From Dictyostelium discoideum (Eukaryota), in the NCBI GenBank assembly GCA_000004695.1, contig CM000155.2, positions 2,592,001-2,656,000 of the forward strand: 64,000 nucleotides of DNA, read 5' to 3'. A program made the position numbers and the translations under genes. The notes under the pieces are model-generated. The model saw only the letters and a list, made by a program, of their open reading frames with translations, made no database searches and had not been told where the DNA came from. Positions 55,324 to 60,524 of this stretch are shown in pieces. Every line of letters starts with the position of its first letter. Position 1 is the first letter of the stretch.

Positions 55324-55489
55324 ATGATGGAAGAATATCAAGAAATAAATAAAATTTTACATGAAATTGATGATGGTAATACTAAAAGAAAAGTTCAATT
55401 GGTAAAAAATAAAAAGGATGGAAAGGTAATTGAATTTTCATTTCCCACTATTTTTTTTTTTTTTATTAATAAATCTCAATCTAATGAAA

Positions 55490-55524
<35 letters not shown>

Positions 55525-55989
55525 CTTTCCAAAATTATAACAACAGTTATATGTTTGTAAAACTATAGATTTTAATAATAATAATGAAACGAAAGATAGT
55601 AAGGTTAAAAGAGAAAGAGAATATTTATTTTTAAAACAATATTCATCACCTAGCTTTTCACATTTAAATATTGCTAAATACATTAAACACTTTGAAACCA
55701 GAGATAATCATGGATACCTTCAAAAATTAACAATAATAATAGAATATTATGAGGGTGGTGATTTAACTAATTTAAAGAATTTAAACGAGTAATTAATCTT
55801 TTTTTTTTCAATTTATTTGTTTTTTTTTTTTTTTATTCTAATTTTTTTTTTTTTTTAAATAAAAATTAAAAGAGTCCTACCAAAAGATATAATTTACCTC
55901 TTTTTTACAATGTTAGTCATTTTAAAAGAATTTAAAAATTCAATTATTCATAGAGATATTAAACCTGGTATGTAATAATTGAATTTTTG

Positions 55990-56065
<76 letters not shown>

Positions 56066-58980
56066 ATAAACCCCTAACTCCTTAATAATAAAAATAAAGA
56101 GAATATATTTTTCGTTAAAAATGGACCAGATCTAGAATTTTATTTAGGAGATATGGGAAGTTCCTCAATGGTTATAACTGATCAAAAAAATACACTTATT
56201 GGTACAAATCAATATATGGCGCCTGTAAGATTTCTTTTTTTTTTTTATAAAAACTCATATATTAACAATATTAAACTGAAAACATTTATTTTTAATTTAT
56301 AGGAAATTGATTTAGGTGGATATACATGTAAAGTTGATATTTATAGTCTAGGTAAAACAATGTTATCACTTATCACTTTAGTTCATTCACCAATGAATTC
56401 AATTTTTGAATCATTATTTCAATTATGTACATTAGAGAATTTCAAAATAAGGCCATCAATAGATCAATTAATTGAATTTGTTTGTAGACAGTATGATCAA
56501 TCAAGATATACTATATCATTGTCAAGTTATACTCATCCAAACACAAGATCAATCATAAAGTATTTTAAAGATAAAAAATTCAATATACTCAAAGAAGGTG
56601 AAAAAATCAATTTTAAAATTGACATTCAAAGTAAATTTTACAATTGTATTAGTGTATATAGGGGTTTCGCTTATAATGAATATATAGTTGAAGAAGAGGA
56701 GAAAGAAAAGGAAGAATATCAAAAGGAAGAAAATCAACAATCAATTCCAAATGTTTTATCCATTGTTGAATTAATTCAACCACCATTACAGGATCTCTCC
56801 AAAGATTTTGAGAATGTATTAATAAATCATATAAATTACATTAGAGATGGTGGTATTAATGGATCTATTAGATCACTATTACATCCTGATATAATTATCA
56901 AGACTAAATGTGATAGGGTAAAAGGTTTTGAAATAAAGGCTCACTCTAATATTACTAATACCGAAGGTTTATTCATTGAAAATGCACATTTAATTTATAA
57001 ACCAGTCAATTTATCTTGGAAAAAGATATTCTTAGAAAGAGAAGACGAAATCACTCCAGATGTTCAATTAAAAGCTGTCTTCTTATCTTTATTGGTAGCT
57101 TTTAAAATCTCAAACGATGAAAATGATTTTTTAACCGGTACACTATTTGATAAACTCATGGAACATATTTATTTTGTGAAATCACCGTCACTACCACCAC
57201 CATCACAAATTTCACCAATTAAAGAACCACTCTCTTCTTATGAACTAAAGATTTCTTTCCCTTTCAACCATAGGGCTCATATCTATGGTGTAAAAGTACC
57301 TTTAAACCCAAACTATTTAAATTTGTTTTTTGGTGGTGAAATAAAGGATACTTTAATATCAAATCTTATTCAAACATTGAATGTATTTATTATTATTATT
57401 ATTATTTATTATTATTTATAATTATTTTAAAATTGTATTATTAATGTAATTTTTATTTTATCAGATATTAGCTCCAAACAATTTACAATATAAAAGCATT
57501 TTAATTAAATTAATATCAATTATTTTAAAAGAAGAGAAAAGAATTTTAAAATCATATTCAAATTTAGGTTTAGAGATTTATTTCAAAGAGTTTAATGAAA
57601 TAATTAAAAATGAAATTGCTTTAGAGGGTATTGTATCAGATAAATTATTAGTTTCAAAGATAGATACAACAAAGAAAATTGAAAAGATAAGAGGTTTTAG
57701 AAATGGTCATTCAAATTCAGATGCAGATATTTATATTTCAGAGTTTAAAGGAAAATATTATGCAATTGATAAATTTGAACATATACCCGGTCTTTTTGAA
57801 ATATTGGAACCATTTTCAAATAAAGCAATCGATGATTTTAATCAACATTTCAAATTCATTTCAACTTTTGTTGATGTCAACGAATCTTTTGGATTAGTGT
57901 ATACAATATTCGAATTACCATCATCCTTAATTAATTCTTATCAAACTACAAGAAAATCATGTGAAAATAAAAATATATTAGATAAAGATAAAACATTTAG
58001 AAATTTATTAAATCAACATCTCTCATATTATCAAAATATTCAAAATAATAGATATAAACTAAATGGAACTGATTTAACAAGTAAAAAATTAAGCTTCACG
58101 GAATGTAAGTTAAAAAACAAAATAAATAAATATATATATTCATTACAACTATTTATGTATTAAAATACACAATTTTTTTTTAATTTTTTTTAAAAATAAA
58201 ATAAAAAAAGATCAATATAATATAATTATTTCAAATGATTGTGATATACATTATTATTTTAGTTTTGTAGGTAAAAATGGTTCAGGTTTAGTTCAATCAT
58301 TCTTTGATATAGGTGCATGGGTTTATGGCGATGAAAATGTTAAAAAAATTAAAGTTTTATCATTTTTTTATTTATTACAGTGCTTATTTGATTATCAAAC
58401 AAAAAATACTCATAATAGTGTTGATATTGATTTCCCAAATATTCTCTATTATCTAAAGAAATTTTATTATTCATCACTTGTTGATTATGGTCTCAATGGA
58501 ATGGATTCTTCAAGTAAAATATTCAACTATGATTTGAATAATTCATATTCATTTATAAAAATTGGATTTTTAATTTATAATATTTTAGATTTATACAAAC
58601 CAAATATTATTCCAGATCAAACATTATATTATGATTCCGATCTAATAGTAATGTTACTAGAGAATAGTTCTAATGTAAGTTAGATTATGCTTTTATAAAA
58701 TACTATTTTGTATGTTTTTAGTTATTTATTAAAATTTACTTTTTTTTTTTTAATTAGAAATTTTTATGTTTTAGAAAACAATATTATTCAGATTTAGATA
58801 AAACAAAATTAAAATTAACTCCAGAGAATATTGTACCACAAAATAATGATAATGATAATTCAATAATTTTATTACCATTATTAATTATTAAAGATGATAT
58901 TACATCATTTCATTTCTTTGATTATAACCTTAAAGATTCAATTAAAACTATAGAAGATTTTAATAATGAAAAAGAGTAAG

Positions 58981-59011
<31 letters not shown>

Positions 59012-60524
59012 TTTATTATTTTTATTATTTTTATTATTATTATTATTATTATTTTTCTCATTTTCAATTGCTTTTTAAAGTTATTCAAATATAGTTATAA
59101 TTAGATGTTTATTATATTATCTACAAAACATTCAAAAGAATCCATCAAATGCAAATTCATTGGTTTTAATTAATTTAAATTTATTTGAAGAAAATGAAAG
59201 TACTGATAATGAATCATTTTTATTTTTTGATATCTTTTATTTAATTAAACAACTACATGGTCTTTCAACAATAATTGATAGTTGGGTAAGTTTGGAATCA
59301 TTTTATAACCACTTTATTATTAGATATTTCTTCATCTATATATATAATACTAATTATTCCAAAATTTATATAGGATAACTTTATTTCATCATTATCAAAA
59401 CCTATATCATTGGTTTCAAATTATATTCAAACCAATTTAAAAAAGATATTAGATGATCCACTATCAATAGATATACTATATAATGATGAATCAATGAGTC
59501 ATTTCAAACCTTTTATATATGATAAAATTAAGGAAATAAAAAAAAACGTTTGGTTAATTAGAGATAAAAATAATAATGTAATTTTTTATCATTTATATAT
59601 ATAAAAAAAAACAATTTTATTAACATATATAAATGTTTTTTTTTTTTTATAGAATTATATTAGAAAATTAAGTGGATACATTAAATCTAAATTTAAAGAA
59701 GTTGAGAAATATGGTTTTGAATTCATAGATGATGTTTCAATTTCAAATCCTTATTTAAAAATTGCAGTAGAAAATGGTTGGCCAATTTCATTTTTATCAA
59801 GCCATTTTAAAAGAGATAATTCAAATCTTTTTGATTATTTATTTAATAAAGAGTTAATAATATTAGAATTATTGAAAGAAAAAGGAGTTGATGGGATTTC
59901 TCAATTGGAATCCTATTTTGTTGAAAATAATATCATTTATATTTTGACAAAGTACCATGGTGATTATTCAAATTTAGAAGAAATCAATGAATTAAACCAA
60001 GAGGATTTATTTGAAATTTTAGTTCAAATGAGTGACAAATTGAAGATATTAGAAAGTTTACAAATATACCATAGAGATATTAAACCTGAAAATATATTAT
60101 TTAAACGTGAAATTGTTAATGGTAACATTCAATCAAAAGTATGTCTAATTGATTTCAGTATCTCTGATTTTGGTTTTATTCTTAAAACAAATGAATCCGG
60201 TTCAAAAATGTATCAAGCACCTGAAATCTATCAAGAAGAATATAGATCAAAAGAAAACGATATTACAAATCAACATTATAAATTGGACATTTACAGTTTA
60301 GGTTTTACATTATCTCATTTAATGAAAAAATTCAATTGTAACCCTCCTTCATTAGTTCAAATTGTCAAAAAGATGATAAAACATAAGGCATGTTTTTTTT
60401 TTTTTTTTTTTTTTTTTGATAATAAAAAAAAAACACCTACTAACATTTAATATTTTTAATTTAGCCTGATGAACGTATAAGTTTAGATGATTTAATAGTT
60501 TTGTTGAAACAACCAACTTTATAA
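55324..60524 (+). CDS. protein with two protein-kinase-like domains, 12 exons, ~1369 aa
   Basis: Model: join(55324..55425, 55547..55788, 55873..55967, 56100..56224, 56303..57382, 57465..58104, 58271..58674, 58758..58975, 59081..59285, 59374..59577, 59653..60387, 60465..60524). All junctions are phase-consistent. Domain 1 has HRDIKPEN (split across intron 3), LGDMG and YMAPE. Domain 2 has IYHRDIKPEN, IDFSISDFGF and YQAPE. The last intron uses a GC donor (AAG|GCATGT...TTTAG|CCT). Confidence 0.65.
55981..56063 (+). repeat. pure poly(A) ~83 nt inside intron 3 of the kinase gene
   Basis: Uninterrupted A run. Confidence 0.9.

Follow-up and report, generated by a model that had tools for sequence, protein, structure and literature searches.

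DDB_G0293292, an intron-rich Dicty9 dual-domain kinase gene of Dictyostelium discoideum with a probable GC-AG last intron

A gene on the forward strand of Dictyostelium discoideum contig CM000155.2 raises the question of how its last intron is removed, and of what the resulting protein is: two kinases in one chain, a kinase joined to a dead copy, or the products of two genes. It lies at 55324-60524 of the 64,000-nt stretch analysed here (positions 2,592,001 to 2,656,000 of the contig, assembly GCA_000004695.1; hereafter, the window), and its sequence identifies it as DDB_G0293292 (UniProt Q54C38; XP_629228.1; kinome id DDB0219988), the predicted protein being 98% identical to the AX4 reference "hypothetical protein DDB_G0293292" (P0001, Q54C38, 1371 amino acids (aa)). 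The answer that we consider likely is that of a Dicty9 dual-domain kinase of 1389 aa encoded by a single 12-exon transcription unit, with a U2-type GC-AG last intron and an ancestral intron richness, for which the AX4 model would be wrong. The protein would consist of an N-terminal eukaryotic protein kinase (ePK) domain with all catalytic residues and a DMG motif, an 857-aa family-specific central region, and a C-terminal ePK domain with a DFS motif.

Exons were built from the three forward frames by joining open segments at GT...AG sites, exon 11 being ended at 60387. They join in frame into an open reading frame (ORF) of 4170 nt, that is, 1389 codons plus the stop, from the ATG at 55324 to the TAA at 60522-60524.

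55324-60524, forward strand: whole coding sequence (CDS) of DDB_G0293292, assembled and translated, 12 exons
55324-55425, 55547-55788, 55873-55967, 56100-56224, 56303-57382, 57465-58104, forward strand: exons 1-6 of the assembled ORF
58211-58674, 58758-58975, 59081-59285, 59374-59577, 59653-60387, 60465-60524, forward strand: exons 7-12 of the assembled ORF

The 1389-codon ORF bears out a preliminary description of this DNA, made from its letters, which had proposed twelve exons in phase and 11 introns. The introns measure 75-132 nt each, and ten of them begin with GTA(A/T)(G/T)(T/A), the eleventh with GCATGT; the sequence is of a kind usual for Dictyostelium, with 22.5% GC for the window, 17-30% GC for the exons and 6-18% GC for the introns. 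Except that it begins at the second ATG, the GenBank protein KAM9944370.1 (P0121, 1388 aa) is identical to this model, and each of its exons has its single counterpart in an independent D. discoideum assembly (GCA_054883475.1, L004). The reference protein P0001 likewise fits the window exactly, in 12 exons separated by 11 introns, which is the existing annotation.

The decisive part of the gene is its 3' end, where the coding sequence depends on the eleventh intron (slashes mark splice sites here and below).

60388-60464, forward strand: intron 11, GC-AG, phase 0, 77 nt, 13% GC; donor AAG/GCATGT, acceptor TTTAG/CCT
60465-60524, forward strand: last exon, encoding PDERISLDDLIVLLKQPTL and the stop codon

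Translation confirms the earlier claim that removal of this segment restores a kinase C-terminus. With 60388-60464 removed the protein ends in ...VKKMIKHKPDERISLDDLIVLLKQPTL, and with the segment read through it ends in a poly-Phe tail, ...KHKACFFFFFFFFDNKKKTPTNI, at a stop at 60448-60450. For comparison, orthologous loci were retrieved and their proteins mapped onto their own DNA; the full-length relatives come from D. cf. discoideum (L001, 82% identity), D. citrinum (L002, 72%) and a paralogue (L003, protein P0004, 33%). All three carry a phase-0 intron at the exact codon boundary that corresponds to 60387/60388, and all with GT donors (AAT/GTATGT in D. cf. discoideum, AAT/GTAAGT in D. citrinum, CAT/GTATGT in the paralogue), followed by a last exon of the type [SY]D[EK]R... 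The window donor differs at +2 by T-to-C, and the exon position -1 is G in the window and T in the three homologues. Over 4.8 kb the independent D. discoideum assembly matches the window with 100% identity; it holds the same GCATGT donor, and its annotation, KAM9944370.1, uses the GC-AG intron 11 as well as the upstream acceptor of intron 8.

The splice signals around this intron are strong. In a weight matrix made from 46 GT donors of the gene family, with positions +1/+2 excluded, the GC site reaches 7.2 bits, where the family averages 5.2 (standard deviation 2.4). A perfect TACTAAC branch site lies at 60438-60444, with its branch A 21 nt before the AG. The acceptor at 60464 scores -0.9 bits, which is below the family mean of 3.3, yet above the -4.8 bits of the acceptor at 60498. 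Although the GC-AG intron proposed in the preliminary description holds, its claim that the last intron is removable in frame only with a GC donor does not, as other pairs also keep the frame: GT 60355 or GT 60364 with AG 60464, and GT 60392 with AG 60486 or AG 60498. These donors are far weaker than the GC site, that at 60392 scoring -1.3 bits, that at 60364 -7.1 and that at 60355 -14.9.

The protein encoded beyond the intron agrees with the GC-AG splice. The conserved peptide of the last exon, PDERISLDDLIV, has its counterparts in SDERISLDDLIVLLKQPPT and YDKRLNLEGLINLLKPITA in the orthologues and in YKDRFSIDQCL and YDERINLKEL in the paralogues, and more distant family members end in ...YDERINLKEL. 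When the two kinase domains are aligned with each other by hhalign (probability 99.2%), FKIRPSIDQLIEFV is paired with PDERISLDDLIVLL; the Arg of subdomain XI (PDERIS), which is encoded only under the GC-AG splice, is thereby placed opposite KIRPS of the N-terminal domain. Because homologous GT-AG introns occupy the same site, the independent assembly holds the same GC together with the same annotation, and the splice signals are strong, intron 11 very probably exists as a GC-AG intron, and the reference gene model is to be amended accordingly.

Intron 11 shows the GC and AG ends, the consensus donor context and the branch site of a U2-type GC-AG intron, its removal restores the conserved protein, and its site is homologous to introns of the relatives. 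It would stem from an ancestral GT-AG intron in which the T at donor position +2 was replaced by C, the GC donor being probably tolerated through the strong signals that remain, namely the AAG/G-ATGT context with its derived -1 G and the TACTAAC branch site. In this single case, the exon -1 G may strengthen the pairing with U1 and so offset the GC. Splicing of the intron would restore kinase subdomain XI with its conserved Arg. A U12-type intron, with an [AG]TATCCTT donor and a U12 branch site, was also considered and rejected: the donor reads GCATGTTT, and U12 splicing has been reported to be absent from Dictyostelium (PMC2846911), so that intron 11 must be U2-type.

The reference model departs from the window model at two sites, the last intron and the acceptor of intron 8.

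58976-59080, forward strand: intron 8 (phase 2), ended by the upstream AG, at 59079-59080

The last intron of the reference runs from GT 60392 to AG 60498, which leads to the C-terminus ...KHKAFLLKQPTL and to the loss of the subdomain-XI Arg; the alignment of the kinome paper displays this same C-terminus (PMC1420674). In intron 8, the reference acceptor (AG 59103-59104) drops the peptide DYSNIVII(R), encoded at 59081-59104 of the window. The corresponding DYSNI[VI]I[IL]R is retained in P0002, P0003, P0004 and P0121, the DYSNIVII segment has a nonsynonymous rate (dN) of 0 with a synonymous rate (dS) of 0.2-0.5, and the acceptor at 59080 scores +2.4 bits versus -2.3 for that at 59104. As judged from these comparisons of sequence, the AX4 reference model is wrong at both sites. 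In the AlphaFold2 (AF2) model, the DYSNIVII peptide forms the start of a long helix.

Other models of the family show irregularities of their own. In the AX4 model of the paralogue DDB0230037, the C-terminal kinase domain ends in an intron read-through, QPHVCKSFKK (PMC1420674, Table S2/Figure S1), and the N-terminal one reads HRDIKPDGSIVN, hence the remark "lacks N171"; P0004, a close relative of it from another assembly, has HRDIKPDNILIK... and the YKDRFSIDQCL last exon, and the AX4 model appears to be mis-spliced in two places. The D. citrinum model contains a 42-nt in-frame "intron" (L002 5993-6034) that removes 14 codons matching VKKIKVLSFFYLLQ; being shorter than usual Dictyostelium introns, it is probably an annotation artefact. 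The exon 1/intron 1 model of the same species also omits eight residues.

With the gene model established, its intron density can be considered. The gene had been described as unusually intron-dense, and it is so in comparison with the roughly 2 introns per gene of the genus (1.96 in D. giganteum), its 11 introns per 4.2 kb of CDS amounting, by our own estimate, to roughly three times the per-kilobase average. All 11 intron positions and phases are common to D. cf. discoideum, D. citrinum and the 33%-identical paralogue, which argues that the intron richness is an old trait of the family and not a peculiarity of the window gene. Beyond these shared 11 introns, D. citrinum has one further intron and the paralogue has two. 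Intron 3 was reported to split the HRDIKPEN motif of the first kinase domain, and does so in phase 1 within the Glu codon of HRDIKP/EN (CCT G/gtatgt...aaag/AG AAT), at a position and phase identical in L001, L002 and L003.

55968-56099, forward strand: intron 3, phase 1, with an A74 run inside at 55990-56063

The poly(A) of this intron, previously given as 83 nt, counts 74 nt as a pure A run. It is the longest homopolymer of the window, and the independent D. discoideum assembly has only A18 at this place (L004 3656-3673); the length of intron 1 also differs, 121 nt in the window versus 113 nt in that assembly. The difference in the A run reflects either a hypervariable homopolymer length or a collapse or expansion in one of the assemblies. 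A further observation concerns introns 1 (55425/55547) and 10 (59577/59653), which are both in phase 0 and are each followed, after a single residue, by Y[VI]xK (GK/LYVCK and NN/NYIRK), suggesting that they hold homologous positions in the two kinase domains.

Two kinase-like domains had been noticed, and scoring of each half with the Pfam Pkinase profile (PF00069; gathering score 31.7 bits) recovers both well above the cut-off.

55324-56494, forward strand: kinase domain a (aa 1-252), spread over exons 1-5 with introns 1-4 between them; Pfam Pkinase 98 bits
59527-60524, forward strand: kinase domain b, aa 1109-1389; Pfam Pkinase 57.6 bits; subdomain-XI PDERIS contributed by the last exon

Their non-canonical DFG motifs can be read directly, DMG at 56150-56158 and DFS at 60151-60159, as the preliminary description stated. 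Domain a holds the beta3 Lys of YVCK (Lys39), the alphaC Glu (E59), HRDIKPEN at 141-148 (D143, N148), DMG at 164-166 (D164), APE at 187-189, D200 and Arg238, and these key residues are invariant among five homologues, down to 33% identity. Neither domain has a glycine-rich loop; domain a is devoid of GxGxxG, with no conserved Gly in the region of its N-terminal strands. In domain b, HRDIKPEN (60070-60093), the Asp of DFS (D1292) and APE are invariant, and the Arg of subdomain XI is kept. The Gly position of its DFG motif is occupied by Ser in the window gene and D. citrinum, by Asn in D. cf. discoideum and by Gly in the paralogues. The placement of its beta3 Lys is uncertain, the candidates being YIRK (K1130) and PYLK; the phase-0 introns shared before Y[VI]xK would favour YIRK.

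Among kinases of solved structure, domain a comes nearest to NEK1, NEK7 and TNIK, and domain b to CDPK, IRE1 and ULK1; neither belongs to a specific family. As to the earlier suggestion that one of them might be a pseudokinase, the classical form, through loss of K72, D166 or D184, is rejected for either domain, since the Asp residues of HRD and DFG do not vary in either and domain a has a clear beta3 Lys. Given that both domains retain the Asp of HRD, the Asn and the Asp that binds metal, they are most likely kinases of an atypical kind, competent or only weakly so, and not dead pseudokinases. Values of dN/dS of 0.3-0.5, uniform from one end to the other, make this a fast-evolving yet constrained gene.

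The alternative that comes closest to the facts accepts the T-to-C change at +2 and takes it to have killed the donor, so that intron 11 would be retained (...KHKACFFFFFFFFDNKKKTPTNI and stop) or spliced from the cryptic GT 60392 to AG 60464 (...KHKAS and stop), and domain b, truncated at its C-terminus, would be turning into a pseudokinase in this lineage. The rarity of GC donors in D. discoideum (about 0.09% of introns) speaks for it, as do DFS in place of DFG, the lineage-specific deletion of six residues from the activation segment and a dN/dS of about 0.5 in domain b. A decayed end, however, is hard to reconcile with a last exon that has kept its ORF intact and hardly differs from its D. 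cf. discoideum counterpart, or with a donor context above the family average, a -1 G that has been gained and a perfect TACTAAC; moreover, U2 splicing normally accepts GC donors whose other positions fit the consensus. We regard a dead donor as unlikely. It is very unlikely that the AX4 reference is right instead, with a GT-AG intron at 60392-60498 and the ending ...KHKAFLLKQPTL. That model is the deposited one (P0001; XP_629228.1/Q54C38), was used in the kinome alignment, and is in frame with canonical dinucleotides, but its donor (cat/GTTTTT) scores only -1.3 bits and its acceptor -4.8; the intron would absorb 34 nt of 29% GC that code for a motif conserved in every homologue, the subdomain-XI Arg would be lost, and the intron would be moved off a position conserved in three homologues. 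A mere error of sequencing or assembly beside the T25 homopolymer, with GTATGT as the true donor, would fit the GTATGT of the sister taxon and the homopolymer lengths that vary between assemblies at this locus; it is effectively ruled out because GCATGT recurs unchanged in the D. discoideum genome that was assembled independently. Equally improbable is a fusion by gene prediction of two separate genes, one per kinase domain. The long central region without a recognised domain might invite such a split, but the frame is open across 12 exons with gaps of only 75-132 nt, all of them introns, four related genes have the same architecture, and purifying selection acts on the central region much as it does on the kinase domains.

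Several observations nevertheless weigh against a functional GC-AG intron and an active domain b. GC-AG introns make up only 3 of 3309 cDNA-supported introns of D. discoideum (about 0.09%), versus 1.3% across 61 species (PMC3033335, Additional file 1 for the former count). The full identity of the independent assembly over 4.8 kb probably means that it comes from the same laboratory lineage, which would leave room for a lineage-specific mutation. Transcript-derived protein fragments were sought in the protein cluster and none was found, its extra members being one full-length annotation and two Logan fragments (P0122 and P0123), which are genomic and unspliced, reading through intron 6 or carrying a frameshift. 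The Pfam Pkinase scores for the three alternative C-termini (57.6, 58.0 and 58.7 bits) do not separate them, because the local match ends at profile position ~195, before subdomain XI. As regards domain b itself, that of D. discoideum is devoid of six activation-segment residues (LYYS[KR]D; 18 nt, at ~60195-60200, between DFS and APE) that D. cf. discoideum, D. citrinum and the paralogues all retain; among the six are conserved Tyr and Ser residues, which could be phosphorylation sites. Together with the change from DFG to DFS and a dN/dS of 0.4-0.5, this shows signs of relaxation in domain b, and the donor mutation could belong to the same process of decay.

Between the two kinase domains lies the region that gives the protein most of its length.

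56495-59526, forward strand: central region, aa 253-1108, no Pfam domain
57648-58548, forward strand: aa 610-874, candidate for a cryptic fold of kinase type (pseudokinase); intron 6 falls within it

A Pfam scan of aa 253-1108 gave no match, and a profile search of 1.84 billion representative proteins with the central region returned only 13 matches, apparently dictyostelid family members or fragments of them. In the orthologues and the paralogue P0004 this region is found together with both kinase domains, and the partial matches P0128 and P0129 each link it to one domain. Low-confidence AlphaFold models of the 857-aa linker matched kinase folds only. Within it, the segment of aa 610-874 is devoid of VAIK, HRD and DFG and keeps an FDIGxWVYG motif of the alphaF type. 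A cryptic pseudokinase fold is plausible but unproven. It is possible, if tentative, that the linker holds at least one and perhaps several highly diverged dead kinase folds, the protein being an array of three or more kinase-like units that arose by repeated internal duplication and of which only the terminal copies would be catalytic. Such inactive folds, if present, would probably scaffold or regulate the terminal domains, and the kinase-array architecture of Dicty9 proteins would be without a described counterpart. Against this stand the low confidence of the linker models (predicted local distance difference test, pLDDT, of ~60) and the hhalign comparisons of the central region with domains a and b, with a small diverse kinase profile, and of segment versus segment, all of which were insignificant.

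Much of this locus has been on record before. The kinome of Goldberg et al. 2006 lists DDB0219988 in Table S2 under group Other, family Dicty9 for both domains, as a dual-domain protein, "partial kd/partial kd", with the predicted activity "aq/aq" (PMC1420674). The motifs given there are YVCK/PYLK for VAIK, HRDIKPEN twice and DMG/DFS for DFG, with the remark "lacks G52/lacks G52, K72 alignment questionable" (PMC1420674). A full-text literature search for DDB_G0293292 returned no matches, and the supplementary files of the paper that re-annotated the Dictyostelium transcriptome do not include the gene. The locus itself, its pair of kinase domains, the DMG/DFS variants and the 11 introns are all known already, and the corrected splice model is already public in the recent GenBank annotation KAM9944370.1. 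The outcome is a small annotation fix and one more rare GC-AG intron of Dictyostelium, in an uncharacterised, lineage-restricted kinase of modest biological stakes. Nonetheless, any cloning, modelling or classification of DDB_G0293292 should rely on the 1388/1389-aa form (KAM9944370.1), and the case illustrates the damage that GT-only gene prediction can do where GC-AG introns amount to about 1 in 1,000. It is also a clean case in which the switch of a donor from GT to GC goes together with a stronger base at exon position -1.

The kinase gene is followed by a CLN5-family ORF at 61194-62513 (forward strand) and preceded by an FNIP-repeat protein at 51610-53364 (forward strand), with an ORF for a tRNA (uracil-5)-methyltransferase-like protein further upstream (47346-48881, forward strand). 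The order of the kinase and CLN5 genes is maintained in D. cf. discoideum (L001), D. citrinum (L002) and the independent D. discoideum assembly (L004).

Set beside known U2-type GC-AG introns, intron 11 is likewise bounded by GC and AG, with a near-consensus donor, a strong branch site and a probable origin from a GT-AG intron at the same site; the class, of which it is a predicted member, is unusually rare in the 22% GC genome of its host. The protein itself falls within Other/Dicty9, a Dictyostelium-specific family of dual-domain kinases with three members (DDB0219988, DDB0230037 and DDB0231281), whose dual domains the kinome paper ascribes to tandem duplication (PMC1420674). The window gene is the listed member DDB0219988 (Table S2 and Figure S3 of PMC1420674), has two Dicty9 domains, and has its central region and intron positions in common with P0004, the orthologue of DDB0230037. 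It differs from the family in no kind, whereas the published alignment and the reference protein show a mis-spliced C-terminus (KHKAF..LLKQPTL) and are devoid of DYSNIVII. Outside this family, dead and live kinase folds are joined in a single protein in JAK (JH2-JH1), in GCN2 (pseudokinase-kinase) and in the tandem kinases RSK/MSK, which have no sequence relationship to the window protein. Unlike these, the latter is devoid of FERM/SH2, HisRS-like or AGC features; its recognisable domains are terminal and both hold catalytic residues, and the putative dead fold would lie between them.

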